Assembly: GCA_965207455.1 (NCBI GenBank)
Contig: CBDBMJ010000003.1
Coordinates: 54,197 to 118,196, forward strand
DNA: 64,000 nt
Direction: 5' to 3'
DNA from: Bdellovibrionota bacterium
GTDB lineage: Bacteria; Bdellovibrionota; UBA1018; CAIPTA01; JAALKR01
The notes beneath the pieces were generated by a model, which saw only the letters and a program-made list of their open reading frames with translations, made no database searches and was not told where the DNA came from. Positions 7,366 to 54,507 of this stretch are shown here, piece after piece (the first letter of the stretch is position 1; each line of letters begins with the position of its first letter). The translations under genes were made by a program, and so were the position numbers.

Positions 7366-8185
7366 TATTATCAATAAGACGGGTTTCGCCCAGAAAAGCA
7401 GCCAGGGCATACACAGCCTTTCCTTTTGTTTCTAGGGGCTTGAGATCGGGATAGGAAAGAATTTCCAGGTATTGGATACGAAAACTTTTTTCTGTTTGGA
7501 TTTGCTCCCTGCCCTGTTGGATAATTTCATCCACAGAGTGCTCTCCCTGTGTATAGAGCTTTGCTCCCTCCCTTAGGGTTTTGTATAAAAGAGGTGCTTT
7601 TTTTCTATCTTCGGAGGAAAGGTATTGGTTCCTAGAACTCAGTGCGAGTCCGTCGGACTCCCTCACTGTGGGACAAAACTGTAATTTCACGGGCAACAGA
7701 AGGTCCTTCACCATGCGTTCAATAACGAGGCATTGCTGAATATCTTTTTTTCCAAAGTAGGCGCAGGTGGGTTGGACGAGGGCAAAAAGACGGGCAACAA
7801 CGGTGGCCACTCCCTGGAAGTAGGTACTACGAAACTTACCACACAAGGGAGCTGAGACTCCCTCCACTTGAATATAAGAAGAAAAACCAGGGGGATAGAT
7901 AAGGGATCTATGGGGGCAAAAAAGTATGGTTAGGTTTTTTTCCCGTAAGCGATTTTTATCTTCCTCCAATGTTCTGGGGTAGACAGAAAAATCTTCGTTT
8001 TCTCCAAATTGTGTGGGGTTTACATAGATGGAAACCACGGTGCACTTGTTTTCTTTTATGGAGGCATCTACCAAAGATTCATGCCCAGGGTGGAGCGCGC
8101 CCATGGTGGGCACAAAACCAATGCTCCCTTGGCGATAGGGTTTAAGGGCATGGTTTAATTCTTCGAGAGTGGTAACGATCTTCAC
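7325..8185 (-). CDS. panC: Pantoate--beta-alanine ligase
   Basis: PTMGALHPGHESLV HIGH-like motif; 286 aa. Confidence 0.9.
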   Translation of the reverse strand: MKIVTTLEELNHALKPYRQGSIGFVPTMGALHPGHESLVDASIKENKCTVVSIYVNPTQFGENEDFSVYPRTLEEDKNRLREKNLTILFCPHRSLIYPPGFSSYIQVEGVSAPLCGKFRSTYFQGVATVVARLFALVQPTCAYFGKKDIQQCLVIERMVKDLLLPVKLQFCPTVRESDGLALSSRNQYLSSEDRKKAPLLYKTLREGAKLYTQGEHSVDEIIQQGREQIQTEKSFRIQYLEILSYPDLKPLETKGKAVYALAAFLGETRLIDNIILGWDDPLYSPE

Positions 8186-9402
8186 TAGCTACTCCAGCGA
8201 GTGTGGGCAATATCCAGTAGCCTTTGAGCAATTTCTTCCTTGGAGGCTTTCGGTAAAAACGTATGGGAAGCATTATTTTCAAAAACATATAGCTCGTTGG
8301 TATCCACATCAAAGCCAATGTCGCTTCTACTCACGTCGTTTAAAGCAATAAAATCCAAGCCCTTTGTTTTTAATTTATCCTGTGCTTTTTCCATTTGCTC
8401 TTTTTTTGTACCCACTTCTGCGGCAAATCCCATAAACACTTGCCCCGGCTTTCGCTTAGCTGTCAAAGAGGAAAGAATATCTTTTGCAGAATTAAGTTCC
8501 AGATTTAATGTTTCCTTGCGTGGAATTTTTCCTTTCTTTTCATCTTTCATTAAAAAATCGCAGACGGCGGCTGTGCTAAAAATTATATTGGCTTTGGGAA
8601 GGGCGCTAAGGGCTTGGGCTTCCATTTCATCGTTGGTTTCCACTTGAAATGTTTTTCCTTGCTCAAGCTTGGTATAGGCGGAATCTACTGGTCCGGATAT
8701 TAAGGTAACATGGGCACCCTGTTTTTCTGCTGCCCTAGCAATCATATAACCCATGCGACCACTGGATCGGTTTGTGAGAAAACGAACCGGGTCCAAATAA
8801 GTACGAGTGGGACCACTGGTAACTAAAACATGTACTCCCTTTAGGGGTTGTGATTCTAATTTCTCCGCAACCTTTTGGTATATCTCCATGGGTTCTGCCA
8901 TTTTACCCATACCCGTTTCCCCACAAGCTAAGTCTCCACTCACGGGTCCAATTTCTTCAACCTTGCGTGCCCGTAGTTTTTTTCTATTCTCTTGAGTAAT
9001 GGGTGCTTCCCACATGCGCACATTCATGGCAGGAGCCATAAAAATAGGTTTCGTGAATGCTAGGGCTTCGGTGAGAAGAGCATCGTCGCAAATTCCATGG
9101 GCGAGCTTTGCCATAAAATTTGCTGTGGCAGGAGCCACCACTAGGGCATCTCCCCATTCACAAAGGTCGATATGGGCAGTGGCAGACAGATCGTAACTCT
9201 GTTGGTCGCCTAGAGAACGAAGCACAGGATTATTGCTCAAGCTCTCCAACGTTAGTGGAGTAACAAATTGCTCTCCCTGCTTGGTTAGTATCACACGCAC
9301 ATTGGATCCATTTTTTACAAACAAGCGCACAAGCTCACAGGATTTATAGGCAGCAATTCCTCCCGTTATTCCTAAAATAATATTTTTATTAAGCAATGGC
9401 AT
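8185..9402 (-). CDS. coaBC: Bifunctional phosphopantothenoylcysteine decarboxylase/synthetase
   Basis: N-terminal flavoprotein ILGITGGIAAYKS and C-terminal DFP ligase domain; 405 aa. Confidence 0.9.
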   Translation of the reverse strand: MPLLNKNIILGITGGIAAYKSCELVRLFVKNGSNVRVILTKQGEQFVTPLTLESLSNNPVLRSLGDQQSYDLSATAHIDLCEWGDALVVAPATANFMAKLAHGICDDALLTEALAFTKPIFMAPAMNVRMWEAPITQENRKKLRARKVEEIGPVSGDLACGETGMGKMAEPMEIYQKVAEKLESQPLKGVHVLVTSGPTRTYLDPVRFLTNRSSGRMGYMIARAAEKQGAHVTLISGPVDSAYTKLEQGKTFQVETNDEMEAQALSALPKANIIFSTAAVCDFLMKDEKKGKIPRKETLNLELNSAKDILSSLTAKRKPGQVFMGFAAEVGTKKEQMEKAQDKLKTKGLDFIALNDVSRSDIGFDVDTNELYVFENNASHTFLPKASKEEIAQRLLDIAHTRWSS

Positions 9403-10165
9403 ACAAACCCTCTAACGTTAGGTTGGGTTCAAAGTGGGTAACGGACTGAGATGTTCCCTCTAACAGATACCCAAATCCACCTGTGGCAATCACGGGGCAA
9501 TCCTGGGGAAAGTTCTTTTCTTTACGAATAGCTTCCACCATACCGTCTACCATAAAAGCAAACCCATGAATGGCTCCACTACTCATGGCAGTTTTCGTAT
9601 CATGGCCCACAACGGGAAGTTCTCCCGACGATGGAGTGAGGGCAATGGGTCCAAGGAGTGCGGTTTTTTGTACCAAAGCGTTCATGGAAATTCCCACACC
9701 TGGGCTAATAATACCTCCCATATATGCAAAGCAATTTTCATTTTTCCCAATAATGTCGAAGGTAGTAGCCGTGCCTGCGTCCACAACAATTGCTGGTGCT
9801 CCAAAACGCAAAGCTCCCTGAGCATTGGCCATTCGATCAGCACCCAAGATAGCAGGGTTGGGTAATTGTATTTCAAAGGACCATGGACTGCTTTCTTTGG
9901 CTATCACTAGGGGAATACTCAGTTCATGGAACAGTTGGCTCCAAGTGGACTCCAGCGCTGGAACCACGGAAGCAAGGACTGCTTTTTCAAGCTGCTTCTC
10001 TAGAGAGTGTTTCCTACGGGAAAGGTTTGTTTCCAAGTAGGTGAAAAGCTCATCAGCATAGGCATGGCGATTGCTTTGTATGTGGAAAGTATGAAGCTTT
10101 CCATCGGACTCGAATAAGCCAAATGTTGTGCGTGAGTTGCCGATGTCAATAATGAGTTTAGCCAT
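9389..10165 (-). CDS. coaX: Type III pantothenate kinase
   Basis: MAKLIIDIGNSRTTFGLF start, ASKHA fold; 258 aa. Confidence 0.85.
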   Translation of the reverse strand: MAKLIIDIGNSRTTFGLFESDGKLHTFHIQSNRHAYADELFTYLETNLSRRKHSLEKQLEKAVLASVVPALESTWSQLFHELSIPLVIAKESSPWSFEIQLPNPAILGADRMANAQGALRFGAPAIVVDAGTATTFDIIGKNENCFAYMGGIISPGVGISMNALVQKTALLGPIALTPSSGELPVVGHDTKTAMSSGAIHGFAFMVDGMVEAIRKEKNFPQDCPVIATGGFGYLLEGTSQSVTHFEPNLTLEGLYAIA

Positions 10166-10770
10166 TATTTTTTACCTCTATTTTCATTTCTACTTTCATA
10201 TTTGGCTTCATTTTTCTTGCTATTCTTTTTTTTCTTTTCAACTTTGACTTCGGGCTTGGGTTTTGGTTTCTTATCTGGATAGTTAATTTTGTAGATAACG
10301 GGAACGCCCAGTACTTTATTTCTTATGGGTAGGAGTACAACGCTAATGCCTTGATTTATTTTTTTTAAAGAGGGGGGGGAGCTCTTTTTTCGAAGTATGG
10401 ATCTTACCATGGGTTTAAGCTCTGTGGGCCAATGGGCCACGAATTTCTTCTCAGAGAGATTTACCCAAAATTTAACATTATATTCTTTTTTATTGACATA
10501 GACTTGTCCCTCTATGCTGGATTTTTTTACGGTGGGGAACTTTTTATTATTGTCAAGTAAGAAAACACTCATTCCACTTCCTCTAATGAGTAACTCGGTT
10601 AGGAAGGTGCCTGCGGATCGAAGTTGACCACCCCTGGGGCCTACGTTTCTCCCTTTACTTTTTTGGGTATTGGAGGCTTTGGAGGTTTTTTGAGCCAACG
10701 ATGGGGGAGCTATGAGGAGAATCGCCAAGGAAAGGAACAGAAGAGAACTTTTTTTAATTTGTTTTTTCAT
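10165..10770 (-). CDS. Secreted lysine-rich hypothetical protein embedded in the pan/coa operon
   Basis: Signal peptide MKKQIKKSSLLFLSLAILLIAPPSLA; KPKPKPEVKVEKKKK tail; no family recognised. Contains a G8 tract. Confidence 0.45.
   Translation of the reverse strand: MKKQIKKSSLLFLSLAILLIAPPSLAQKTSKASNTQKSKGRNVGPRGGQLRSAGTFLTELLIRGSGMSVFLLDNNKKFPTVKKSSIEGQVYVNKKEYNVKFWVNLSEKKFVAHWPTELKPMVRSILRKKSSPPSLKKINQGISVVLLPIRNKVLGVPVIYKINYPDKKPKPKPEVKVEKKKKNSKKNEAKYESRNENRGKK
10372..10379. repeat. Homopolymeric G8 tract (C8 on coding strand, encodes SPPS) inside secreted-protein gene
   Basis: Read directly: agggggggga. Confidence 0.8.
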
Positions 10771-10771
10771 C

Positions 10772-11572
10772 CTATCCCTTGACTTGTTTTACATAATCCG
10801 AGGCAGCTCCACTGACTATTTTTTTCAAATTGCAGTAGGGCGTAGCAAACTTTGGCGTGGGACCAAAGGTATAGCCTAAGATATCATTTACCACGAGCAC
10901 CTCTCCATCACAAACAGTTCCTGCTCCGATCCCAATGGTCGGAATTTTTAATTCTTGGGTAATTTGTTCCGCTGCTGTGGGATGTAGGCACTCCAGTACC
11001 AAAGAAAAACATCCAGCTTTTTCTAAAGCTAGGGCTGATTGCACCAAGAGGTCCACATCTTTTTCCGTTTTTCCGTGGATATAAAACCCTCCCATTTGGT
11101 GTATGGACTGAGGAGTGAGACCAATGTGACCCATCACTGGGATCCCTGTCTCCACACAGCGACGGGTGAGTTCTAGAATATGGGGGGAGGCGCCCTCCAT
11201 TTTTACGGCCTGTACTCCACCCTCGCCCAAACAACGACCACTACTGATCAGACCCGTCTCCACAGAACTTTGATAGCTCATAAAAGGAAGGTCTGCGATA
11301 ACAAACGCTCGCTCACTTCCTCGAACCACGGCTGCTGAGTGTTCTATAATAGTATCCAAACGAACCTGAAGGGTATTTTCTTGACCGTAGACCACGTTGC
11401 CGATGGAGTCGCCCACGAGGAGAATATCCACACCTGCATCGTCTAGGCATTGGGCTGTCATCACATCGTAGGCTGTTAGGGCAGCTAGGCGTTCCTTGCC
11501 CTTCATGGCTTGGAGGGAGTGGAGTGTGTGTCGTTTTGTTTTGTTTTGTACGCTACTCATATTTTGTTCCAT
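10772..11572 (-). CDS. panB: 3-methyl-2-oxobutanoate hydroxymethyltransferase
   Basis: LAALTAYDVMTAQCLDDAGVDILLVGDSIGNVVYG core; 266 aa. Confidence 0.9.
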   Translation of the reverse strand: MEQNMSSVQNKTKRHTLHSLQAMKGKERLAALTAYDVMTAQCLDDAGVDILLVGDSIGNVVYGQENTLQVRLDTIIEHSAAVVRGSERAFVIADLPFMSYQSSVETGLISSGRCLGEGGVQAVKMEGASPHILELTRRCVETGIPVMGHIGLTPQSIHQMGGFYIHGKTEKDVDLLVQSALALEKAGCFSLVLECLHPTAAEQITQELKIPTIGIGAGTVCDGEVLVVNDILGYTFGPTPKFATPYCNLKKIVSGAASDYVKQVKG

Positions 11573-12479
11573 TGGTAGTTGGGTTCCTATAGCGTTCCGT
11601 TCCTTTCTTGCTAATCGGTGATCCCGATTCTATTTCTTTAGAAAACTCTTGGGCAAAAACTCCAGACTCAATATCTTCCCAAAGTTTTTCCATTCGGGGT
11701 TGAAGTTCCTTTTGGGGAAGTAAATATTCTGAAGCTCGTATGCCGCCGAACCTAGCGGTGCTACTTACTTTTTCTAACATTCCAGCCACACCCCATTCTA
11801 CCATCATATCCACGATGAGTTTGGTTTCATGCAAGCACTCATAGGTGGCTAGTGTCGGATTGATTCCTTTTTTCACAAGGTGGCGTATGCTGGCATCCAG
11901 TAGGTGGGGGATTCCCCCGCATAATAGGATTTGTTCGCTGAAAAGATCGGCGTTGGTTTCCTCGGAAAAGGTGCTTTCCAGCAAGCCCACTCGATGGCAG
12001 CCCAGTCCTGTGGCAATTGCGCGGGCAAGTTCCCAAGAATTACCCGAGGCATCCTGAGATACAGCAAGCACGCCCATCACTCCTGAACCAGCCACATAGT
12101 TTTCTCGGAGTTTTTTACCGATACCTTTCGGGGCAACGAGAATGGAGTTGTCTTGGGGAGAGAGGGGAAGTTTCCCGTACGTTACGGCAAAGCCGTGGGC
12201 AAAAACAAAGGTTCGGGGTGAGCCATCTTTGCAGTGGGTTTGGAAAAAAAGTGGAATCTTTTCATCTGGAATTAAAATGGCTATGGGGTGGAGCGCTCGA
12301 TTTTCCAGTGCCTCCTCTAGGGAGCAGGTGGCAAAGCCATCTTTTTGAGCTCGCTCAATGGAGGTTCCCTTGTTTAATGCATTGCGCCCAGAGACAGTCA
12401 CGTCCCATCCTGAGTCTTTTAGGTTTTTTGCCCATGCTTGCCCTTGATTTCCGTAGCCAATAAGTGTAATTTGTGCCAT
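11553..12479 (-). CDS. Ketol-acid reductoisomerase (IlvC)-like NADPH reductase, in the operon position of ketopantoate reductase
   Basis: IGYGNQGQAWAKNLKDSG Rossmann motif; AHGF...APKG...GLLESTFSEETNADLFSEQILLCGG...YECLHETKLIVD matches the KARI knotted domain. 308 aa, slightly shorter than class I KARI. Confidence 0.7.
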   Translation of the reverse strand: MAQITLIGYGNQGQAWAKNLKDSGWDVTVSGRNALNKGTSIERAQKDGFATCSLEEALENRALHPIAILIPDEKIPLFFQTHCKDGSPRTFVFAHGFAVTYGKLPLSPQDNSILVAPKGIGKKLRENYVAGSGVMGVLAVSQDASGNSWELARAIATGLGCHRVGLLESTFSEETNADLFSEQILLCGGIPHLLDASIRHLVKKGINPTLATYECLHETKLIVDMMVEWGVAGMLEKVSSTARFGGIRASEYLLPQKELQPRMEKLWEDIESGVFAQEFSKEIESGSPISKKGTERYRNPTTNGTKYE

Positions 12480-12505
12480 GTGACTAATTACTAGCAGGAT
12501 TTTCC

Positions 12506-12913
12506 ATGTTACTCAACTTTATGAAAGCAAAAATTCACCGACTTCGGGTTACTCAAGCCAATCATGAGTATGAGGGGAGTGTGACCATTGATGAGCTCCT
12601 GATGAAGGAGGCAGGCATATTGCCTTATGAGCAGGTGCAGGTCTATGACGTGACCTCTGGGAGTCGTTTTGTGACGTATGCGATGGAGGGCCCTCCTGGA
12701 AAAGGGGATTGCTGTGTGAATGGAGCAGCCGCACGTTTGGTGGCTCTAGGGGATGAGGTAATTATCATGAGTTATTGCTTATTAACCCAAGAGGAGGCTT
12801 TGGATTACCAGCCCAAGGTGGTGCTTATGAATAAAGACAATTCTATTAAAGACAGTTTTACGGTTCGAGGGGGACATAAGGAAGTGGGCGCACCGTTGGT
12901 GGAAAGAAAGTAA
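12506..12913 (+). CDS. panD: Aspartate 1-decarboxylase (pyruvoyl-dependent)
   Basis: MLLNFMKAKIHRLRVTQANHEYEGSVTID with the G-S self-cleavage site; 135 aa. Confidence 0.9.
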   Translation: MLLNFMKAKIHRLRVTQANHEYEGSVTIDELLMKEAGILPYEQVQVYDVTSGSRFVTYAMEGPPGKGDCCVNGAAARLVALGDEVIIMSYCLLTQEEALDYQPKVVLMNKDNSIKDSFTVRGGHKEVGAPLVERK

Positions 12914-14082: not shown

Positions 14083-14391
14083 ATGATTGTGTTTTTCACT
14101 CATAAGAAACCACTGGATCCCAGTTCCTACCCTTTTCCAAAGTATGGGGAATTGGTCCATTGTGTGGAATACTTTTTCTTTGCCATACTATTGCAGAAAG
14201 CCCTGCTTCGCAGTGAGGTGCCCAGGAGTTTTTGGTATGCCTTTGGGGGCACGTCCATCTTTGCTGTGGGAAACGCCCTGTATCTCTCCTTTTTCTCCAA
14301 CGGTGGCGCTTGGAGCACTACGGATTATATGGCCGTTGGGCTGGGAATAGGGCTTGCCATGTTTCTCTTAAATAGTATTTATCGCACCTAG
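14083..14391 (+). CDS. Small integral membrane protein (possibly VanZ-like)
   Basis: ORF 13933..14391 overlaps rmuC by 100 nt; internal ATG at 14083 avoids the overlap. Three predicted TM helices. Family assignment weak. Confidence 0.3.
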   Translation: MIVFFTHKKPLDPSSYPFPKYGELVHCVEYFFFAILLQKALLRSEVPRSFWYAFGGTSIFAVGNALYLSFFSNGGAWSTTDYMAVGLGIGLAMFLLNSIYRT

Positions 14392-14597
14392 GGTCCCAGG
14401 TCCGTGAGCATTTCCACCCCACCCACATCCGTTAGGTACACATGACCCGCGGGGCACACATGCTGTTCCACTTTTCTGGAAACATCATCGGGACGAATCC
14501 CACGAATCACAGGTATTGAGGAAAAATTGGTCTTACAGATGGGACAATCCAATGCTCGTTCCAAGGGATGCTTGGGTAGGGAATGTGCTTTTGTCAT
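14388..14597 (-). CDS. Small zinc-ribbon-like hypothetical protein (CPICK...CPAGH)
   Basis: 69-aa ORF with CxxC...C...H spacing; downstream of the paralog pair on the same strand. Confidence 0.35.
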   Translation of the reverse strand: MTKAHSLPKHPLERALDCPICKTNFSSIPVIRGIRPDDVSRKVEQHVCPAGHVYLTDVGGVEMLTDLGP

Positions 14598-14707: not shown

Positions 14708-14804
14708 TTTGTAATAAATTAAAATTTATGTATTTAAATTTTTTGGTTAGCTGCCGGTTGCATTTTTTGATGAGCAATCATCAGCATCAGTTGATGCGAA
14801 AGGC
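14708..14804. repeat. 97-bp direct repeat copy 1 (3' end of CDS + 3' UTR)
   Basis: Identical to 15524..15620 at the nucleotide level. Confidence 0.85.
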
Positions 14805-15502
14805 TCTTTATAGCTCATGCCTCGTTCTTTGAGGCTGGTGTAGTCGTCATTTCTTTTCAATTCAGTACAGAGGTTATTTAACTTCTGTACTTGTTTCGCT
14901 AACCTTTTAGCTTCTGCTTCCGCTTCTTGAGCTTCAGTTATTGCTTCTTCAACTTCTTTTTCTCCAATCAAATTTTTAAATCTTTTTTCCTTGATTACAA
15001 GCGCCAGCTCAGACTCTACTCTTGTACTTACTTGAGAACCTATTTCATCTTCTATATTCGTCTTATATCTATCAAGCAGATCAGCGCCAAAACCCTTAGT
15101 ATATCCAGAAAAAATACAAGTAAATATACCTTCTTTAAGTAATTTATAATTAGTCAAGAGAACATCTGATCTAGTCGAGACTCCACGGAGTATAAATCTT
15201 GAAATTATACTTGGCTCTTCTGTTGCCTCACATCTAGAATAATTTTCAGAGATATAAGTTGCGATATGAGACTTTAGCTTTTCCCTGATCACAGTATCTG
15301 TGGAAGAAATAGTTTTTTGATATTCCGCTGTCTTACTTTCCGCATCTCTAACTCTCTCTTTTGCACGTATGAATTTCTCCTCAGCAGAAACAGGTTTCAC
15401 CGATGAATCATCACTCTCAGGATTCAGCGCATGTCCAATTGTTGGTGATGCTATGGAAAGCGCTATTGCTGTTATCATTACTATATTTTTTGTTTTTATC
15501 AT
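14747..15502 (-). CDS. Secreted coiled-coil protein, paralog A (conserved C-terminal ...PFASTDADDCSSKNATGS)
   Basis: Signal peptide MIKTKNIVMITAIALSIASPTIGHA. Clear homology to 15563..16240. Last 19 codons and 3' UTR identical to paralog B. Confidence 0.6.
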   Translation of the reverse strand: MIKTKNIVMITAIALSIASPTIGHALNPESDDSSVKPVSAEEKFIRAKERVRDAESKTAEYQKTISSTDTVIREKLKSHIATYISENYSRCEATEEPSIISRFILRGVSTRSDVLLTNYKLLKEGIFTCIFSGYTKGFGADLLDRYKTNIEDEIGSQVSTRVESELALVIKEKRFKNLIGEKEVEEAITEAQEAEAEAKRLAKQVQKLNNLCTELKRNDDYTSLKERGMSYKEPFASTDADDCSSKNATGS

Positions 15503-15523: not shown

Positions 15524-15620
15524 TTTGTAATAAATTAAAATTTATGTATTTAAATTTTTTGGTTAGCTGCCGGTTGCATTTTTTGATGAGCAATCATCAG
15601 CATCAGTTGATGCGAAAGGC
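15524..15620. repeat. 97-bp direct repeat copy 2
   Basis: Identical to 14708..14804. Confidence 0.85.
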
Positions 15621-16240
15621 ACTTTATAGTCTAGACGTTGATCTAGGATAATAGCGATGTCATCTCTTATTGCTCTATCAAGGAGGTTCTCTAATTTTAG
15701 AAGTTGCATAGCCAATTGAATAGCTTTTTCTTCTGCATATGCAAATTTTCTTTCTGCATCTAGATCTTCTTCCGCACTTATAGCATCGTTTATATCCTTT
15801 TTTTCAGCTTCTACTTTTGTACTTACTTGAAGCTCTATTTCATCACCCAGCATTTCAAAATACGTTTTATTTATACTACCTTTAGTAAATCCATGAAAAA
15901 TGCATCTCGATATTCCTATTTCGATTCCTTCATTACGATCAACTGGTATGCTTCTATTGTTCAAATAACGATAGTCCGCACCCATTATCCGAATATCGTT
16001 TATTTCTTCTTCCTTGCACCTAGTATAATTTTTAGAAATATAAGATGAGAGATGAGACTTTATTTCTTTATTTTTAGAATCAAGTTCCACTTGATATTCC
16101 ACAATCACTTCATTTAAAACCGCGGTCCTCTGCTTAGAGTTCTTTGACAAATCATCATCAGAATATCCAATTGTTGGTAAGGCTATGGCAAGTACCATTG
16201 CTGTTATCGCTATTATATTTTTATTGCTTGTTTTCATCAT
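15563..16240 (-). CDS. Secreted coiled-coil protein, paralog B
   Basis: Signal peptide MMKTSNKNIIAITAMVLAIALPTIGYS; shared YTRC...CIFHGFTKG core and identical C-terminus. Confidence 0.6.
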   Translation of the reverse strand: MMKTSNKNIIAITAMVLAIALPTIGYSDDDLSKNSKQRTAVLNEVIVEYQVELDSKNKEIKSHLSSYISKNYTRCKEEEINDIRIMGADYRYLNNRSIPVDRNEGIEIGISRCIFHGFTKGSINKTYFEMLGDEIELQVSTKVEAEKKDINDAISAEEDLDAERKFAYAEEKAIQLAMQLLKLENLLDRAIRDDIAIILDQRLDYKVPFASTDADDCSSKNATGS

Positions 16241-16449
16241 TATTCTTATCTCCTTTATTCATGTTAGTTATATTTGTTAATGCAAGGGACGTGCCAGAAT
16301 AGCTTTAAAAGGGTATAATTTAAAAAAGCTTTATTTTCAGTCGCTTAGCCGTTAATCTTATGCCTGCTGATACAAAGGCTACAAGAAATCAAGCCCTGGA
16401 TTGACTAAAAAATAAACAATGTCGAGGAATTTTACAGTAACCAGTAAAT

Positions 16450-17553
16450 TTATGTGTTTGGTTGAAGAGTGAGTACTTCTGCTTCTATCCAGGAGCCTGC
16501 CCCTGTTTGGGTTATGAGTCGGGGGTTGTGGAGTTGAAACATGGTGGGTTCTTCGGCAAAGGCAAGAGGGTATTCCGTTATGGTCACTAGGGCTTTGGTG
16601 AGTTTATAGGAAGGAGGCAAAAATCCTCCGATGGTGTCCACCAATCGGGACTGCACACAACGCTTCCAAAGGGCAGGGCCTCTGTGAATAGCTGTTAAAT
16701 AAAATCCAAAATTTCGCAGTTGACGAAGAATGGGTGCTACATCCATATAATTCTCTTTGATTGGGATTTGAACCACATGTATGCCAGCATTGATCATTTG
16801 CTTGCGCTTTTCTTCTTGGGCGGGAGCGTCCCCGATAAATACAATGGTTTTTTCCTCTCTATTTTGCACCAAGTGGGATTCCATCGGTATGGCCCCAAAG
16901 GGGTCCAGCACACATACCCAGTCTTGGAGGGAAACAATACTATCTTCCCGATAGGCTGCTTCCACGTCGAAAAGAAGAATGTCGTAGAAAAATGGAGTGC
17001 TCTTATTGTGCACACTCACCCGTACTATCTTTTTCTCATCGTCTATCTTTAAATCCCAAATTAGTTTTATTTGTGGGAGAAAGCGGTTGATGGATTTTTT
17101 GTAATCTTCATACAAGAGTTGGCAAAGGTGAGCTTCCTCTCCGTCGGCAATAATTACCTCTAAACCGTATTGCTCTAAACTTTGTATACCCTTGCCGCTA
17201 ATACTTTGTGTGGGATGGAGAGTACCAATTAACACTCTGGGAATGCCCATGTTTCGTATGCTTTCCGTTACTGGAGGAATGCGCTGGTAGGTGGGGTTGG
17301 GCTCCAAACTTAAGTATAGGGAAAGCTCCTCTGGCCTGGAGTGATCGTCGATGGTGTTCCACGCTTGGACCACACCATCTTCCTTGTCGCCCGGTTGAAA
17401 AACCGCTTTAGCCAGCACAGTACTTCCTCTGGCAATAATTGCGGACCAGGTGCTCTCCAAGGGTTGACCTATTTTTACTGGCGGTCGTCGACCCTCCAAA
17501 ACCAACTTATGGGTTTGGAGTAACATCTTTCTATCTAAATTCTCAAAGGTCAT
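16450..17553 (-). CDS. RibD-family (deaminase-like + RibD_C reductase-like) protein with degenerate deaminase active site
   Basis: N-half aligns to the CDA fold (…YLSLEPNPTYQRIPPVTESIRNMGIPRVLIG… versus …YVTLEPCxHxGRTPPCADALIEAGVARVVVA…) but lacks the HAE/PCxxC zinc ligands. C-half matches RibD_C topology. Confidence 0.45.
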   Translation of the reverse strand: MTFENLDRKMLLQTHKLVLEGRRPPVKIGQPLESTWSAIIARGSTVLAKAVFQPGDKEDGVVQAWNTIDDHSRPEELSLYLSLEPNPTYQRIPPVTESIRNMGIPRVLIGTLHPTQSISGKGIQSLEQYGLEVIIADGEEAHLCQLLYEDYKKSINRFLPQIKLIWDLKIDDEKKIVRVSVHNKSTPFFYDILLFDVEAAYREDSIVSLQDWVCVLDPFGAIPMESHLVQNREEKTIVFIGDAPAQEEKRKQMINAGIHVVQIPIKENYMDVAPILRQLRNFGFYLTAIHRGPALWKRCVQSRLVDTIGGFLPPSYKLTKALVTITEYPLAFAEEPTMFQLHNPRLITQTGAGSWIEAEVLTLQPNT

Positions 17554-17572
17554 GGGATTAGGAAATCATTCC

Positions 17573-18637
17573 TTAAGCAGGCTCTTCCACAAGAGCGCGC
17601 ATTTCCTGTTCCACATGGTATGTCTGTGGTTGGGTGGCATCCTCTAAAATCGGAGATATGCCAACTCCCGGAATATGCTTTCCTGCAATCATGCGAGGGC
17701 GCACTTGAAGAGAATAAAAAAGTTCGTCACATACCCTGCGAATAAGATGCTCAGAAAAATTGCACACCTCAGTGTCCTCGTTGATACAAATAAAGCGCCC
17801 TGTTTTTTTTACGGATTTGCGAATCGACTCCCAGTCGTAGGGATAAATAGTTCGTAGATCAATAACCTCGTAATGAATACCCTCTTGAGCCAATTTTTTT
17901 GCTATCCCCTCCACTATGGGCATGAGCCTTCCCCAAGCCACCACTGTGGCCCTGTCTCCCTCTTGGCAGGTTCGTGCCTTACCAATGGAAATATTGGGAT
18001 CCGAAAGCCCTTGGGGCCAACGGGGCTTCCAATTCATTTTCTTTTTTTCGTTCACAGGCATATCGATCATGTCGCGAAGTTGCTTTTCATCATCAGGCTC
18101 ACCCGGTATTTTCTTCTCCCCCTTACTCCGCAAAAGCGCCTTGGGCTTTAAGTACATAACAGGGTTGGGATCTTTAATGGCCGCTAACATTAAGCCGTAA
18201 GCATCGTAAGCGTTGGAGGGCATAACCGTCTTCCAACCAGGGATCTGTACCATTTTAGAATCAAAGGAATGGGAATGATAAATAGAACCGTGAATACCAC
18301 TTCCAACGGGAGTCATCACCACAATGGGGCAAGTATAGTCGCCATTACTGGCCCAACAAGCATTGCCCGCAAGTTTTAATAGGTCGATGGTATTAAAAAT
18401 ATAATCACAGAACTGAATTTCTGCCACACAACGGCTTCCTGCATAGCCCAGACCAGTGGCCATGCCAATCACACCTCGCTCGTCCAAAGGACTGTTCCAA
18501 CTTGTCTCCAACCCTTGGGTGGCTGTAAATACTCCACCTAGTGGAGGACCCACGTCTTCCCCAAAAACGTCCTTTAAATCCAAGTTTTTTTCTCCGTACG
18601 CCAACGCCATTCGGATTGCCTGTGCAATAGTCGCCAT
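17573..18637 (-). CDS. 2-oxoacid dehydrogenase E1 component beta subunit (transketolase-like)
   Basis: GEDVG...GGVF...RVIDTP-like N-terminus and AEIQF, LRTIYPYD motifs. About 35-aa Lys-rich insertion relative to typical E1-beta. Confidence 0.8.
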   Translation of the reverse strand: MATIAQAIRMALAYGEKNLDLKDVFGEDVGPPLGGVFTATQGLETSWNSPLDERGVIGMATGLGYAGSRCVAEIQFCDYIFNTIDLLKLAGNACWASNGDYTCPIVVMTPVGSGIHGSIYHSHSFDSKMVQIPGWKTVMPSNAYDAYGLMLAAIKDPNPVMYLKPKALLRSKGEKKIPGEPDDEKQLRDMIDMPVNEKKKMNWKPRWPQGLSDPNISIGKARTCQEGDRATVVAWGRLMPIVEGIAKKLAQEGIHYEVIDLRTIYPYDWESIRKSVKKTGRFICINEDTEVCNFSEHLIRRVCDELFYSLQVRPRMIAGKHIPGVGISPILEDATQPQTYHVEQEMRALVEEPA

Positions 18638-18640
18638 AAA

Positions 18641-19735
18641 TTAACCCCTTCGTTTATTCTTCCATTGCTCTTTGGCAAGTTTTATAAAGTCCACACCAAT
18701 GGACTCAGCTAAGGTGTCCCTACCTCGATCATTATTCTCTTGAGCATAGACATGATCGAAAATACTCTCAGGTGTGGGATGCGTTTCTTGTCGTACTTTT
18801 TTCCAACTCTCACTAATTTCCTTCGTCCATTTTTCCCAAACCTTTTTCGCGTCCTGAGAGGAAAGTATGCTCTGCTTTTTTAATTCCTTTTCAAACCCCT
18901 CAATAGGACAAGGGTCTGTGGTTCGGTTAGCACCACTAGCAGACGAATGACCATAAAGACGACTCACACAAAACTCCAAAAGATAGGGCTTGCGCTCCTT
19001 GCGCACATATTCCATGGCCTGGCTTAAAGCACCCCAAGCCTCCCATACATTGTTTCCGTCGACAGTGAGGGAAGGAATTCCAAAGGCTTTTCCCCGGTCG
19101 GAAATTTTTCTCTCTCCGTGTTGACCGTCGTAAGTGGTGGAAATACCCCAACGGTTATTATTCACAATTATAAGTAGAGGCAAAGGAGCCGCTGGTCGAC
19201 TCGCCCAAATAAGAGCACTGGCAAAATCACCCTCAGCTGTGCCCGCATCTCCCCCATTGGCAATGGTAATACCCCTACTTCCCCTCTGAGCATGAGCCGT
19301 TCCAATAGCCTGGGTATATTGGGGCTCAATACAAGAAGAGATGGGAGGAATATTCCACTCCCGCTTGCTATAATGATTTACAAAGTTTCGACCCCCAGAA
19401 TAGGGATCCGTGGAAACACAGGCCATTTGGCGAATAGTGTCTGCTGGGTCCGCTCCCATTGCCATTAAAATACCGCTGGATCGATAGTGCAGATGAAGGA
19501 AATCATGATCCAGACCAGAACCCTTATCGAGTAAAAGCCCAAGGGGAATGGAACTTGCCTCTTCTCCCGGCCCCCCAATCCAAAAAAATCCCTCGCCTGA
19601 TTTCCCCATAAGAATGATGCGCTCTTCCAATACCCTGGTCTTTACCATGAGGCTGTGAATTTGTAGCAAGGTTTTTGGGGGTATGGCTGACTGAACTGAT
19701 CGCACAGCCGCTGGAGAAAGTACTTTTCTGGTCAT
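18641..19735 (-). CDS. 2-oxoacid dehydrogenase E1 component alpha subunit (TPP-binding)
   Basis: TPP motif GDAGTAEGDFASALIWAS...IIVNNNRWGIST; 364 aa. Confidence 0.8.
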   Translation of the reverse strand: MTRKVLSPAAVRSVQSAIPPKTLLQIHSLMVKTRVLEERIILMGKSGEGFFWIGGPGEEASSIPLGLLLDKGSGLDHDFLHLHYRSSGILMAMGADPADTIRQMACVSTDPYSGGRNFVNHYSKREWNIPPISSCIEPQYTQAIGTAHAQRGSRGITIANGGDAGTAEGDFASALIWASRPAAPLPLLIIVNNNRWGISTTYDGQHGERKISDRGKAFGIPSLTVDGNNVWEAWGALSQAMEYVRKERKPYLLEFCVSRLYGHSSASGANRTTDPCPIEGFEKELKKQSILSSQDAKKVWEKWTKEISESWKKVRQETHPTPESIFDHVYAQENNDRGRDTLAESIGVDFIKLAKEQWKNKRRG

Positions 19736-19860: not shown

Positions 19861-20796
19861 ATGAAGTGGAAATTTCCTCCAGCTTTAGCGTCGGATCAAG
19901 CAATCGGGGTGGTGGCACCCTCGAGCTTTGTGGATAATACATTCTTGCAATCAGGGCAAAAAAAATGCAGTCAGCTGGGCTTAAAACTCCACTATGACGA
20001 ATCCATATTGCAGAAAAAATTGTTCTTCGCAGGCGAAGACTCTCAAAGGGCAGAGAATTTTATTGCTGCCCATACTAGCGAGACCAATAATATGCTTTGG
20101 TGTGCACGAGGAGGCTACGGGGCTGCTCGTATTCTTCCCCTATTGGAGGAAAAAAAATTCCATACAACACTCCAAGAAAATCCAAAACTCCTTATTGGTT
20201 ACTCGGACTCCACAGCTCTCTTTACCTATTACCTACAAAGGGGAGGAGTTTCCTGTTTACACGCTCCCTTAATGGCAGCTCCCAGTTGGTTAGATACGAC
20301 AGAAAAAGATTCTACCGACTTTCTCAATATCCTTCATGGAACCACAGGTCTGGGCAAAGCCTCCCATACCGCAAAATGGAATACCCTTTTTTTAGGAAAC
20401 CGTGGGACAGCTGAAGGAATTCTCATGGGAGGAAATATTAGCGTGCTATGTTCTTTAGTGGGTACGCCTTGGCAGCCCAAGTTTCAAGGAGGGATTGTGC
20501 TACTGGAAGATTGTAACGAACCCCCTTACCGGCTTCACCGTATGCTTACCCAATTGGATCAGGCCGGTTGTTTCGACGGAATACGAGGAGTAATTCTCGG
20601 CGACTGCACCCACGGAGTGCCCAAAGGCACTACCTGGGAAACGGTCTTTTCCGACATACTCGTTCCCAAATGTCTCGTGCTTCATGGTGCTCCCGTGGGA
20701 CACAGCAAGCGCAACAGCCCTCTCCCACTAGGGGTGCGAGCTAGAATCAACTCCCAAGGAAAACTGGAGTTATTGGAGCAGGTGGTAGGGCTCTAG
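19861..20796 (+). CDS. ldcA: LD-carboxypeptidase (S66 family)
   Basis: VVAPSS...LW...GG...LIGYSDSTAL nucleophile-elbow region; 311 aa. Confidence 0.75.
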   Translation: MKWKFPPALASDQAIGVVAPSSFVDNTFLQSGQKKCSQLGLKLHYDESILQKKLFFAGEDSQRAENFIAAHTSETNNMLWCARGGYGAARILPLLEEKKFHTTLQENPKLLIGYSDSTALFTYYLQRGGVSCLHAPLMAAPSWLDTTEKDSTDFLNILHGTTGLGKASHTAKWNTLFLGNRGTAEGILMGGNISVLCSLVGTPWQPKFQGGIVLLEDCNEPPYRLHRMLTQLDQAGCFDGIRGVILGDCTHGVPKGTTWETVFSDILVPKCLVLHGAPVGHSKRNSPLPLGVRARINSQGKLELLEQVVGL

Positions 20797-20806
20797 GATT
20801 ATTAAG
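20760..20806. repeat. Imperfect ~45-bp direct repeat, left copy (covers last 12 codons of ldcA)
   Basis: aaaactggagttattgg[agcaggtg]gtagggctctaggattatta versus 22216..22256 aaaactggagttattgg[g]ggtaggactctaggattatta. Confidence 0.75.
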
Positions 20807-21431
20807 AGACCCAAAATTTCTGTAATTCATCAATAAAGCTCTGGTAAGCCTCTTCAAAGCTAGGTGCTTCTTTGATTCCTGAAACAGCACTTGACCAACC
20901 GATCTTCAGAAGGCTCAAATCTATGGTTTTTAAATGCTGGATAAGATCTTTAGGAATAACTGTTTCTCGATAATTGAAACAAGCTTCAAGAGAACGAAAT
21001 AAATTGTTTTTTTCAGCTCTTGGAAGAAAGTAGGATAAGTCAAATATATCCTTTGAGCGTGAATTGTACTTTCCAAGATCCACTAGTGCATGAATTTTTT
21101 CTGCAATCATTGTTTCTATAGGATAAACAAACCAAGTCAGTTCATTTTCTCCAATCAGCTCTGGTGTTTTAATTTGAAGAGGAGAAGGAACAATAGGATC
21201 ACCAATTCCTAGGTCAAATTGAATAATCTGGAACTTTTTTATATTTTTAGGTATCTCGCCAATCCCAGCACGAAATACTTGTCGAACTCCACCATACTCG
21301 CCCTGAGTTTTAAGATCTATTTCTTTTTCAAACCTAAACCAAACAGCATCATTAAAAGTTTTTTCTACGACTACCTTAACAGCATCAAGATCAATTGTAT
21401 ACCTGCTGGATTTATAAATACGTAGTCCCAC
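20802..21431 (-). CDS. abiEii: AbiEii/DUF1814 nucleotidyltransferase toxin (type IV TA / abortive infection); N-terminus ambiguous
   Basis: IETMIAEKIHALVDLGKYNSRSKDIFDL matches the AbiEii signature. First canonical start is GTG at 21431, but the in-frame upstream 33 codons encode ...LVFKGGYVGL (the conserved GG nucleotide-binding motif) with no ATG/GTG/TTG; in-frame stop at 21531. Confidence 0.6.
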   Translation of the reverse strand: MGLRIYKSSRYTIDLDAVKVVVEKTFNDAVWFRFEKEIDLKTQGEYGGVRQVFRAGIGEIPKNIKKFQIIQFDLGIGDPIVPSPLQIKTPELIGENELTWFVYPIETMIAEKIHALVDLGKYNSRSKDIFDLSYFLPRAEKNNLFRSLEACFNYRETVIPKDLIQHLKTIDLSLLKIGWSSAVSGIKEAPSFEEAYQSFIDELQKFWVS

Positions 21432-21557
21432 ATAGCCACCCTTGAAAACAAGAGATTTGTAGAGTGTTGCATTTGATGTAATTCTGACAACTAAGATTAT
21501 TTTTTTTAGCCCAATTTGAAAGCTTCTGTTTTATCGAGATGCTCTGATTCTTTATAC

Positions 21558-22124
21558 TCATAAAATGATGGCCTCCCAATATTTATCAAAGGTTTTTTTT
21601 AGGTTTAGTGCAGTTGCCATTTTTCCAAGTTTCGTTTCTGTAGTAAGGTCATCTTTAAGAGCACGTCTTGTTGCATTTATCGCAATTCTAAGACCGAGTT
21701 TCGTTGCAAATTTTAGTGATTCAATAAGTGTGCGCTCAATATTTGTGATTTTAAAGCATCCTCGATCTTCGATTCCTTTAGTAAAAGGTGTGCTTGTTCT
21801 AAGACATTTATATTTTTTGCGTTCATTTTTTTTTGCTTGAGGTACGATAAGCCAAACTTGCTGAGGAGCCTGATCAATGAGTCCGTAATGAAAAAGAGCA
21901 GAGAGCCCACTTACGGCAGCATCTGGTCCAAAATACTTGTATGCCATAGCAAAATCCAGCTCTTCTGGATCAATGGAAGACTTTGGATGCATATAAAGAC
22001 CACGATCAATTCGTAGGAGCTTTTCCTGCTTCACCCACCTTGAAAGCGTGTGTCGCCCAATGCCCGCGCTGCTTTGAGCTTCTTTCGCATTGAATATTCC
22101 AAGTTTTTTTAGTTTGCTAGGCAT
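21558..22124 (-). CDS. abiEi: AbiEi antitoxin / transcriptional regulator
   Basis: N-terminal wHTH LGIFNAKEAQSSAGIGRHTLSRWVKQEKLLRIDRGLY typical of AbiEi_4; 188 aa; directly upstream of abiEii. Confidence 0.65.
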   Translation of the reverse strand: MPSKLKKLGIFNAKEAQSSAGIGRHTLSRWVKQEKLLRIDRGLYMHPKSSIDPEELDFAMAYKYFGPDAAVSGLSALFHYGLIDQAPQQVWLIVPQAKKNERKKYKCLRTSTPFTKGIEDRGCFKITNIERTLIESLKFATKLGLRIAINATRRALKDDLTTETKLGKMATALNLKKTFDKYWEAIIL

Positions 22125-22215: not shown

Positions 22216-22256
22216 AAAACTGGAGTTATTGGGGGTAGGACTCTAGGATTATTAGG
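22216..22256. repeat. Imperfect direct repeat, right copy (ldcA-tail remnant overlapping lipoprotein stop)
   Basis: See left copy 20760..20806. Confidence 0.75.
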
Positions 22257-23004
22257 GTAGGGGCCACAAGCGAAACACGCTTTCTGTTTTCGATATCCAC
22301 TCCCCCCGTTCAAAGGGTGTTTTCACGGTATAAGGTGATTTAGCAAAACGGAAAAGCAGGGGCGGGTAGGTTTTATCTTCTTTTTGCCACTGGGGATTTT
22401 GTCTTCCTTTTGCGTGACGAAAGTTTAAGAAGTCGAAGTGTATGTACACCTCCTTTGTGTTTCCAGAGGCAAGAACTCGCCCATCTGGAGTAAGTCGCTT
22501 GGAGTAATCTATTGACGGCAGGCCCATTCGATTCATGGTAATTTCGTCTTTAATCTGAGTATATTCACAGAGATTTATATTTTCTTTTTGGGTAATATGA
22601 ACACGTCCGTGGCTCACGCCCCCATCCTTTCGTCGACCAAATACTTCAAAAGATTTTCTATTACTCAGTTTCTTTCCCTCCTTTCCCCAAAGTTCGTAAA
22701 GAAAAACCATGGACTCTTCTGGAAATAAACCGCAAGAAGGAATTTTATATACTTTCAGAAGTTTCCTGCCACCAAGGAAGCTTACTTCTATTTTCTCTTC
22801 TGTATGGCGCTCGTCGGTTGCAGCTAGGCTATCGCTTAAGGTATTTAGAGTGCCCTTCCAAGTGCCCTCTAGTTTTTCAAAAGAGAAGCTCTTCCAACTT
22901 TGGTTCATTTTGGTACACTCAAAGCATAAAGAATTTAGTCTTTGCCCCGCACAGCCACTCAAAAATAAACCCAATACGCCAATAGAAAAAAGTAAACGCA
23001 CCAT
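22252..23004 (-). CDS. Lipoprotein of unknown function
   Basis: Lipobox LFLSGCAG; 250 aa; no family recognised; sits between the AbiE and HipBA modules. Confidence 0.5.
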   Translation of the reverse strand: MVRLLFSIGVLGLFLSGCAGQRLNSLCFECTKMNQSWKSFSFEKLEGTWKGTLNTLSDSLAATDERHTEEKIEVSFLGGRKLLKVYKIPSCGLFPEESMVFLYELWGKEGKKLSNRKSFEVFGRRKDGGVSHGRVHITQKENINLCEYTQIKDEITMNRMGLPSIDYSKRLTPDGRVLASGNTKEVYIHFDFLNFRHAKGRQNPQWQKEDKTYPPLLFRFAKSPYTVKTPFERGEWISKTESVFRLWPLP

Positions 23005-23092: not shown

Positions 23093-24313
23093 TCATGAAT
23101 ACATTTTTTTTGCTTTTTTTAACTCTGCATGTTCGAACGCTGAGGCCATGCGATCGATTTCTTTTTTACTTAAGCCAAATTGTTGGGCAATATCGCGCCA
23201 GCTAGAAACAGCCGTTGCCACCTGCTTCACAATCTTATACGCTTGATTTTTTTCTAGTCTAAATTCGTCAATAACAGATAGAGCTGTATCAATAGAGGCT
23301 GTTGAGTCATTGAAGCTAATTGAAGTTGAAAGGATACGGTCCTTTATGTCGATGGGATTTGGGTTTATATCGTAAGCAGGTGAGAGGCGCCAGCCTTTAT
23401 GTCGTTCATATAAAAAACCATGGTTTCGCAAATGATCGTCGGTATTAGAAATAAGTACGGTGAAGACAATCCTGCGCCAAAGTTCTGCCATATCTTGATC
23501 GGGTTTTTCACCATACTGTATAAGGGCATGGGCGATCTCAAGATAGCTGCGCCTATCATTATCTTTTGCACCAAGCATACTCATGGCAGAGAGGAATGGA
23601 ATGCGTTTATTACCTATTCGATCAAAGCGCTGTATAATGAGAACAGGTTTTTTCTGGATATTTTCTAAGCGCACTTCAGGGATCTGTAGACCAGCTTTTT
23701 GTGCCAGTTTAAGAGCCACAGCTTCCCATACAACAACATTATATTCATCATCTTTTTTAGGAAATTTAGCAATAGCGAGACGACCATTTTTATCATACAC
23801 AGATACCTTTGGTCTTGCACCACCAAGAGAAGAGCCTGGAGCAAGAAGTATTTTTAAATCATCCTCTGTTTCATTATCATTTAAGAAATTCTCGGAGGCA
23901 GACAAAAGCCTTGGTAAATCAATAAGTGGTGGAATGCTTGTTCTGTTTTTTCGAGTTAAGTATGGTCCTTGGGATTGCAGGGAAAAGCGCAGCGCGCCCT
24001 GACGTGATTCATCGTTGACGGCAAGGAGATAATCTATTTCTAAAAGAGGTTTCATGGCTTGCCCTTTCCTTTTTGCACGCATACTTTCAAAGCGCTGAAT
24101 GAGAATATGTCCCCAGCGATCTGGAGCAGAGTCTCCAATTGCGCCAAATAAAGCCTGACCGGGGCATGTATAAAAAGCACCCTCGGTGAGTTGCAAGGCC
24201 GGATCAATGGCAAATCTTTCGCGATTCTTGCGCTGGTGACACCATAATTTACCCACTTGCTGGCGCTCATCACCAAGTTGGATAGAAACATAAATTTGCT
24301 TACTATTTGCCAT
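23093..24313 (-). CDS. hipA: HipA-family Ser/Thr kinase toxin (type II TA)
   Basis: N-terminal couple_hipA-like domain (IYVSIQLGDERQQVGKLW) and HipA_C kinase core; start taken at MANSKQ (24313), overlapping the hipB stop by 11 nt. Confidence 0.75.
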   Translation of the reverse strand: MANSKQIYVSIQLGDERQQVGKLWCHQRKNRERFAIDPALQLTEGAFYTCPGQALFGAIGDSAPDRWGHILIQRFESMRAKRKGQAMKPLLEIDYLLAVNDESRQGALRFSLQSQGPYLTRKNRTSIPPLIDLPRLLSASENFLNDNETEDDLKILLAPGSSLGGARPKVSVYDKNGRLAIAKFPKKDDEYNVVVWEAVALKLAQKAGLQIPEVRLENIQKKPVLIIQRFDRIGNKRIPFLSAMSMLGAKDNDRRSYLEIAHALIQYGEKPDQDMAELWRRIVFTVLISNTDDHLRNHGFLYERHKGWRLSPAYDINPNPIDIKDRILSTSISFNDSTASIDTALSVIDEFRLEKNQAYKIVKQVATAVSSWRDIAQQFGLSKKEIDRMASAFEHAELKKAKKMYS

Positions 24314-24638
24314 TGTTCTCTCGATTGATCCGAGGAAACCGAATGCGTTTTGGCAGGTTTTCTGTTTCCAGATCCAGTCCAATAATATCGCGGTGTGGGC
24401 CGGCTATATTCTGCAAGTGATCAGTCATGCCTAGTACGAATAGAGCACAGGCATATGATCCCATTGAAACAGAGGGCTCACCTCTTTCAATTTTGCCTAA
24501 AGTTATAACTGAAAAGCCTGCACGTTCAGCCATAATTTTTGTGGGGATACGCCGTCGTCGTCGAGCGACAGAGATATTTTCACCAAGCTCACGCATGGCT
24601 CTTTTTGCAGGAATGGGTAATCGTGGTTTACGTTTCAT
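24303..24638 (-). CDS. hipB: HipB-like XRE-family HTH antitoxin
   Basis: HTH ISVARRRRRIPTKIMAERAGFSVITLGKIERGE; 111 aa; translationally coupled to hipA. Confidence 0.7.
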   Translation of the reverse strand: MKRKPRLPIPAKRAMRELGENISVARRRRRIPTKIMAERAGFSVITLGKIERGEPSVSMGSYACALFVLGMTDHLQNIAGPHRDIIGLDLETENLPKRIRFPRINRENNGK

Positions 24639-54057: not shown

Positions 54058-54507
54058 TTGACAAAGTTTATAAACAACGATATGTTGGTCTCCGATATGC
54101 CCAGTGATACAAATTTTGCAACAGTTGACGTGAAGAAAAAAGAACTCATAACAGAAGAAAGTTCTTTATCTAATTTTGAAACAAGTACTTTTCATAACAT
54201 TTCTCCGACGATAAACGAAGACACGAACTCCACCCACGCCAACCGACAAATTTTTTCCAGCATGCTTGTTACCAGCAAAATAGATTCCAATGTGGATTGC
54301 TCCGTAACGGACAGAATATCCCAACTGCTGGAAAGCCCTCAAGTGAATGCCATACTAAGTGCTGCAGAAAAACTATCCCGCGAAAAAGATATACCATTAG
54401 CAAAGTCCATGGAACAAATTATTGGAAGCCTACGGGAACTGGACGAACTATGGACTCAAGTTCTCTTCCGTGAAGGATTAAACCACCTAAGCAAATCTAT
54501 CCAATAA
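54058..54507 (+). CDS. Hypothetical protein
   Basis: 149-aa ORF, Ser/Thr-rich N-half; no family. Confidence 0.35.
   Translation: MTKFINNDMLVSDMPSDTNFATVDVKKKELITEESSLSNFETSTFHNISPTINEDTNSTHANRQIFSSMLVTSKIDSNVDCSVTDRISQLLESPQVNAILSAAEKLSREKDIPLAKSMEQIIGSLRELDELWTQVLFREGLNHLSKSIQ

Follow-up and report, generated by a model that had tools for sequence, protein, structure and literature searches.

A stretch of 64,000 nucleotides from a Bdellovibrionota bacterium (positions 54,197 to 118,196 of contig CBDBMJ010000003.1, assembly GCA_965207455.1), which is termed the window hereafter, harbors at 16450-19735 three collinear open reading frames (ORFs) on the minus strand, all of which were found in place when checked: the α and β subunits of a thiamine pyrophosphate (TPP)-dependent 2-oxoacid dehydrogenase E1, followed by a 367-aa protein (16450..17553) named here pseudo-RibD. 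Judged from its alignment, this protein is a RibD-derived pseudoenzyme in which the catalytic residues of both domains have been lost. With a probability of roughly 50%, pseudo-RibD is considered to assist or regulate, without catalysis of its own, the E1 of a canonical lipoate-dependent complex, probably acting together with a small zinc-ribbon-like protein, s64, encoded close by.

As a single sequence, pseudo-RibD scores under every curated cutoff (RibD_C, E=0.0094, 16.2 versus 24.1 bits; TIGR00326, 46.5 versus 156 bits), and no match to the Pfam model dCMP_cyt_deam was obtained. A profile built from its family and compared with the PDB retrieved full-length structures of RibD (E=1e-20), the match extending over both domains (residues ~36-304), and the deaminase-like N-terminal domain is encoded by roughly 17074-17553 on the minus strand. 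The AlphaFold2 model, with a mean predicted local distance difference test score (pLDDT) of 81 and a predicted template modelling score (pTM) of 0.78, found its best Foldseek match in RibG of B. subtilis (2b3z, E=9e-20, TM 0.62), and the first 20 matches were all full-length RibD chains. The RibD-like two-domain fold had been proposed in an earlier interpretation of this DNA, termed the sequence-only reading, and both the profile and the Foldseek comparison uphold it.

The motifs of the active sites were compared by aligning ~36 members of the pseudo-RibD family with six canonical RibD sequences, where the MAFFT and HMMER registers lie one residue apart at the HAE position. The HAE motif is replaced by D-A-V (or by x-D-A in the HMMER register), with neither a His/Cys ligand nor a catalytic Glu either way; family-wide, the zinc His has given way to an invariant Asp (a variable residue in the HMMER register) and the catalytic Glu to Val/Ile (Ala in the other register). 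Likewise, LEPC has become LEPx, the first Cys being variable and kept in 2/36 members, and PPC has become P-V/T/I-T-E, with Val, Thr or Ile in place of the second Cys. Zinc ligands in a shifted register were also sought, and no His, Cys or Glu was found in either the MAFFT or the HMMER register; since no conserved Cys or His exists in either register, or anywhere in the ~36 members, the objection that intact ligands are merely displaced fails. The deaminase half without zinc ligands, as described in the sequence-only reading, is consequently confirmed throughout the family, with the loss of the catalytic Glu in addition, and the structure prediction suggested there as a check yielded a RibD-like model, the loss of the zinc site being confirmed by the alignment.

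The degeneration of the second half escaped that earlier interpretation, which had described it as a reductase-like domain fused to a dead deaminase. The K of LK..SLDGK and the GxGT, DDP and EGG motifs, which are presumed to make up the NADPH/substrate site, are absent or non-conserved in the ~36 members, while all of them are kept in the six canonical RibDs, and with the loss of these canonical motifs an active reductase partner is not supported. Pseudo-RibD has kept the scaffold motifs LEP, RVV.G..DP and G.G...L...G.EV, and the invariant residues E33, D56, D59, E84, R91, E97 and R100 are situated at or beside the former deaminase active-site positions, where R91 is aligned with the K/R of the canonical G(K/R)TPPC motif. 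No canonical ribD occurs in the 64-kb window, and rib genes are absent from the neighbourhood of all sampled pseudo-RibD loci.

Only 13 relatives of pseudo-RibD were encountered among 5.8 billion clustered proteins, and when 1.84 billion representatives were searched exhaustively with the profile, 23 family clusters (defined at 50% identity) were returned at E<=1e-30, below which a gap in score leads down to canonical RibD at <=116 bits. By these searches, the family forms a small side branch of RibD, set apart from the canonical enzyme, and it is confined to one clade of Bdellovibrionota-type metagenome-assembled genomes (MAGs). The ratio of nonsynonymous to synonymous substitution (dN/dS) amounts to 0.02-0.19 in the measurable pairs, values that are approximate as dS is near saturation, and the dN of pseudo-RibD is 3-5 times that of E1 α/β. 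Pseudo-RibD is under purifying selection and is not decaying; an enzyme homolog without catalytic residues that is held by purifying selection is what is operationally called a pseudoenzyme.

Across the lineages that keep the gene order, pseudo-RibD is only 30-40% identical. Its conservation peaks at residues 71-160 of the N-terminal domain, including the invariant E149-D150-Y151, and the C-terminal domain is poorly conserved. Residues 71-160 are at the same time the lowest-confidence part of the AlphaFold2 model (pLDDT 52-71), in which the conserved ADGEEA..CQ.LYEDY stretch is modelled least confidently, with pLDDT <50 at residues 148-155. The coincidence of the strongest conservation with the least confident modelling is as expected of an interface that depends on a partner.

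The genomic context of the family was derived from ~16 further loci (~17 with the window), collected by context look-ups together with genome and metagenome scans from MAGs labelled Oligoflexia, Bdellovibrionales, Bacteriovoracia and Bdellovibrionota. The related loci share a unit of four genes in the order E1α, E1β, pseudo-RibD and s64, beside a divergent LD-carboxypeptidase gene (Peptidase_S66 in Pfam; 19861..20796 on the plus strand in the window), which serves as a syntenic marker and is found at this place in every related locus whose upstream sequence reaches far enough. The spacers in the unit measure 5-19 bp in the window and in the loci L001, L002 and L010, and the order is kept despite saturated dS between lineages. 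In the window, too, pseudo-RibD is located directly 3' of E1β with a short spacer, which, with the same order in the further loci, supports the co-operonic arrangement with the E1 pair claimed in the sequence-only reading.

In the s64 family, 22 columns are invariant, among them C, C, C and H, with the pattern CPxC...CPxGH. In related loci the s64 gene, which encodes 64 aa, directly follows that of pseudo-RibD with no gene between, and on the metagenome contigs found by searching with s64, pseudo-RibD is directly upstream wherever upstream sequence exists. The genes lipA, E2, lpdA, lipB and sfsA come 0.1-3 kb downstream of the unit, the gap sometimes containing opposite-strand genes, and the lipA-E2-lpdA-lipB adjacency was seen in all related pseudo-RibD loci that extend far enough downstream. 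The E2 of these relatives contains lipoyl, PSBD and catalytic domains, and their lpdA scores 548 bits against a cutoff of 409. This order and adjacency indicated that the unit is part of a canonical 2-oxoacid dehydrogenase complex that depends on lipoate and is of the pyruvate dehydrogenase (PDH) or branched-chain 2-oxoacid dehydrogenase (BCKDH) type.

Two further features of these loci deserve mention. In L006, a 163-aa ORF on the opposite strand (9483-9974) occupies a 790-bp gap between E1β and pseudo-RibD. In the closest relatives of the window, a second, degenerate E1-like set is arranged around E2 (L001 5770-9694; L006 12430-16385; L023 7239-11185), which comprises a 235-aa protein and a 311-aa E1β paralog upstream of E2 and a 315-aa protein with faint E1α similarity (E about 0.002 to BCKDH E1α) downstream of it, and which is possibly another pair of pseudo-subunits.

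Both E1 subunits look catalytically intact as far as their motifs tell. The E1α (364 aa; 18641..19735, minus strand; PF00676, E=2e-40) carries the TPP motif GDA-X27-NN and the catalytic His in YGHSSAS, as read from the translation, and the E1β (354 aa; 17573..18637, minus strand; Transket_pyr and Transketolase_C) carries SPLDE and YHSHSFD, which are invariant in relatives along with the YGHSSAS of E1α. The roles of the YGHS His, the HSxS His and the TPP-activating Glu of PLxE are presumed to be those known from established E1 structures. The pair has the components of an E1 heterotetramer, namely an E1_dh domain with the TPP motif and a β subunit with Pyr and C-terminal domains. The closest solved relatives of E1α are the BCKDH E1α of Thermus, P. 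putida and human and the PDH E1α of Geobacillus; E1β matches its solved relatives at E=1e-44 to 4e-49 and is 66-84% identical to the E1β of loci sharing the gene order. An assignment to PDH or BCKDH was attempted from family models and PDB ranking, neither of which is decisive: the ranking tilts slightly to BCKDH-type enzymes, and the scores against the PDH E1 equivalogs (TIGR03181/NF006667) are so far under the cutoffs (169.6 versus 411 bits for α, 152.6 versus 321 for β) that the substrate cannot be assigned.

Two regions of E1 fall outside the solved structures. An inter-domain insertion of ~35 aa in E1β (residues ~177-212; 18002..18109, minus strand) stays unmatched in those solved E1β chains for which an alignment was displayed, and its motif IPGEP..K.L..MID.P....WK..WP is conserved at >=80% in the 120 best E1β homologs, all of which carry the insertion. 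The sequence-only reading had singled out this insertion as Lys-rich; the insertion is real, but it is only mildly Lys-rich and is a trait of the wider clade, including loci that have no pseudo-RibD. Four sister loci (MAG labels Planctomycetes, GCA_044222185, Bdellovibrionales RIFOXYC1 and Bdellovibrionota FG-1), with an E1β 63-64% identical to that of the window, possess the insertion and lack pseudo-RibD, s64 and an adjacent E2, so that the insertion is older than pseudo-RibD and is not specifically paired with it. Being equally conserved in these sister loci, it was rejected as a docking site for pseudo-RibD.

The second region is a C-terminal tail of E1α, ~30-35 aa in length (18641..18748, minus strand), which is specific to the clade and lies outside the canonical fold, as solved chains align to residues 23-332 only. 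Its motif NxDxG[RK]Dx[FL]AxxxG[IVL]D[FY], also written with NGDxG at its start, is present in 16/16 sampled carrier loci and in 0/4 sister loci, which makes the tail a candidate docking element. All sampled loci with an E1β >=66% identical have pseudo-RibD and s64, while pseudo-RibD, s64 and the tail are jointly absent from the sister-clade E1 pairs at <=64% E1β identity; by this distribution, the three were gained together. In the sister clade, a PP2C-family phosphatase gene (7005-7775) is situated directly upstream of E1α in L012, which has no pseudo-RibD, and an ECF (extracytoplasmic function) sigma factor and a kinase-like gene are found downstream in L011, neighbours that may hint at a different regulatory arrangement.

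The window itself departs from this layout in two respects. No match was given anywhere in its 64 kb by the E2, E3, lipA and lipB of relatives as tblastn queries, by which an E2 overlooked downstream is ruled out. The E1 pair is accordingly an orphan within the window, as the sequence-only reading had stated, but in relatives the same unit adjoins lipA, E2, lpdA and lipB. By comparison with those loci, the locus of the window appears to be rearranged and its orphan E1 a local accident, the E2/E3 block presumably having been split from the unit and residing elsewhere in the genome.

The other departure concerns s64 (14388..14597, minus strand; 63% identity in tblastn to the 64-aa gene next after pseudo-RibD in L001), which is ~1.85 kb away from pseudo-RibD. 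Between them stand two tandem paralogs of 251 and 225 aa (14747..15502 and 15563..16240, minus strand), outside the conserved unit, which are 39% identical to each other (E=1e-36). Both look secreted, with N-termini that are hydrophobic and signal-like, and they share the same FASTDADDCSSKNATGS at the C-terminus. They belong to no significant Pfam family and gave no tblastn match to the genes of L001 and L002 used as queries; a 106-nt repeat, 99% identical, is shared by their 3' segments (14708-14813 / 15524-15629), which suggested recent gene conversion. Compared with related loci, the paralogs are a lineage-specific insertion in the otherwise conserved junction between pseudo-RibD and s64. 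A 209-bp AT-rich spacer (16241-16449) follows pseudo-RibD at its 3' side. It has a good AAGGAG ribosome-binding site in front of the first of the two inserted genes, contains nothing resembling a terminator hairpin, and may let transcription of the E1 operon run on into the paralogs.

Taken together with the non-catalytic, regulatory or moonlighting role offered as one option in the sequence-only reading, which the evidence favours, a scheme for pseudo-RibD may be drawn. A RibD copy has lost both active sites and kept the fold of deaminase plus reductase, and its product would most likely be an accessory subunit of E1 with a part in structure, in assembly or, by sensing a ligand, in regulation; it would bind through its highly conserved N-terminal domain, possibly to the clade-only tail of E1α. 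In a fuller version, which is rather unlikely, pseudo-RibD and s64 might both be extra E1 subunits docked on this tail, with the old deaminase pocket, now remodelled and rich in carboxylates, sensing a metabolite or cofactor to tune E1. Several points weigh against a partnership with E1. The physical association and any regulatory effect are read from gene context and sequence; the narrowness of the clade means that the conserved synteny partly reflects shared ancestry; and an opposite-strand ORF stands between E1β and pseudo-RibD in L006 and L023, which, besides the window, are the only loci among those examined where the tight spacing is broken, so that, with s64 displaced in the window, tight coupling is not obligatory. 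The E2 of the window's own genome, moreover, was not found among the 120 best E2 homologs, and the invariant residues listed above line the former pocket, which would be equally consistent with a site for small molecules that has been kept or with a chemistry that is new.

This lining is the starting point of a rather unlikely rival, according to which pseudo-RibD is a neo-functionalised small-molecule binder or enzyme with a pocket rebuilt from carboxylates and arginines, for a ligand relevant to the complex such as thiamine, a flavin, a nucleotide-type compound or a divalent metal, and not a stoichiometric E1 subunit. The invariant residues, and R91 at the place of the K/R of canonical RibD in particular, are in its favour, as are lipA and lipB among the neighbours, which are cofactor-maturation genes of the same complex. 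It has to contend with the disappearance of all canonical motifs of the deaminase site and the reductase domain, with the poor conservation of the C-terminal domain and with the absence of rib, thi or flavin genes from the neighbourhood, and the Rfam scan of the locus gave no match, FMN/TPP riboswitches and other cofactor-linked RNA included. In an unlikely alternative, a RibD duplicate and a small ORF would have landed behind E1β in the ancestor of the clade as passengers and been kept for a reason that has nothing to do with the dehydrogenase, the synteny being simply inherited. The confinement to one clade and the intervening genes tolerated in L006 and the window would suit it, and the promoter/terminator scan of the locus returned the same counts as shuffles, no better than chance, which lends the operon structure no support; yet the order has been kept across saturated synonymous divergence and at 30-40% identity of pseudo-RibD, only very short spacers separate the genes, the E1α tail was gained together with pseudo-RibD and s64, and s64 is always accompanied by an upstream pseudo-RibD in loci with upstream sequence.

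A truly orphan E1 that works with the RibD-like protein in an E2-independent, non-canonical pathway, as the sequence-only reading had envisaged, is very unlikely. It can appeal to the absence of E2, E3 and lipA from the 64-kb window, to the E2 of the window's genome missing among the 120 best homologs and to the sister-clade E1 pairs, which are also encoded away from E2. Against it, every related pseudo-RibD locus with enough sequence adjoins lipA-E2-lpdA-lipB, a complete lipoate-dependent set; the TPP motif is kept, E1α retains the His for reductive acylation of lipoyl-E2 and E1β retains its C-terminal domain; and neither a redox site nor a catalytic one can be recognised in the RibD-like protein. 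The partnership of pseudo-RibD with the E1 of a canonical complex is thus preferred to a pathway of its own.

The remaining surroundings of the unit in the window are of a different kind. Past s64, a convergent rmuC is followed by a pantothenate/CoA cluster (7325-12913), which consists of panC, coaBC, a type III coaX, a 201-aa ORF, panB, a ketol-acid reductoisomerase (KARI)-like gene and a divergent panD; the KARI-like reductoisomerase gene overlaps panB, and its product possibly takes the role of a ketopantoate reductase. On the far side of the LD-carboxypeptidase gene, toxin-antitoxin pairs of the AbiE and HipA kinds have been inserted, namely an AbiEii/AbiEi type IV pair (20802-22124) and a HipA-like kinase with an overlapping helix-turn-helix partner (23093-24638). 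The two pairs flank a homolog (22252-23004) of a 259-aa gene conserved in relatives, and the AbiEii ORF, matching profile positions 48-236 only, may be N-terminally truncated.

Among known systems, canonical RibD (PDB 2b3z, 2g6v, 3zpc) shares with pseudo-RibD the same two-domain architecture and fold. Pseudo-RibD differs from it in being only 13-18% identical and in being encoded with E1 genes rather than with rib genes. Annotation pipelines may call the family "pyrimidine deaminase RibD-like", a name that was seen in JGI data, and when metabolism is reconstructed from Bdellovibrionota MAGs, pseudo-RibD should be left out of the riboflavin-biosynthesis capacity. Another parallel is the plant PyrR, reportedly a homolog of RibD in which the deaminase-like domain is inactive and the reductase domain still works, which would likewise be a RibD paralog whose deaminase domain is kept as a non-catalytic module. 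The parallel ends there, since the reductase of PyrR works and serves riboflavin synthesis, whereas both halves of pseudo-RibD appear dead and its context is that of a 2-oxoacid dehydrogenase. PyrR and PyrD are named in PMC6793443. In Francisella, an enolase dimer is bound by a RibD dimer, the contact being made by the deaminase domain of RibD (PDB 9no2; PMC12742849), which is a structural precedent for the RibD fold as a protein partner; unlike pseudo-RibD, the Francisella enzyme is catalytically active and is paired with enolase, no operon partnership is reported and no effect on activity was found (PMC12742849).

The E1 genes themselves are of an ordinary, known kind, and share domains, TPP motif and catalytic His with the α2β2 E1 of PDH/BCKDH (PDB 1um9, 1qs0, 1dtw, 1w85), from which they differ by the ~35-aa insertion in β and the clade-specific tail of α. 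Compared with PDH/BCKDH E1 clusters, two extra conserved genes are placed between E1β and the rest of the cluster. No homology to known accessory proteins of such complexes was detected, and the literature was searched for dehydrogenase operons of Bdellovibrio and for an E1 partner resembling RibD, with nothing relevant coming up. The accessories of 2-oxoacid dehydrogenases known until now are the E3-binding protein, the PDK/BCKDK kinases and their phosphatases, which act in assembly or regulation; they are essentially eukaryotic or mitochondrial, and none of them is known to have a RibD fold or a zinc ribbon. The module of pseudo-RibD and zinc-ribbon protein attached to the E1 genes appears to be undescribed. 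In the fuller version, with both proteins docked on the E1α tail and a pocket that senses a ligand, it would be a bacterial, non-kinase mode of regulation or assembly built from a recycled enzyme of the riboflavin pathway. If the proposed partnership is true, it would represent a new type of accessory component for bacterial 2-oxoacid dehydrogenase complexes and would offer a clean case of an enzyme fold recycled to a non-catalytic role.

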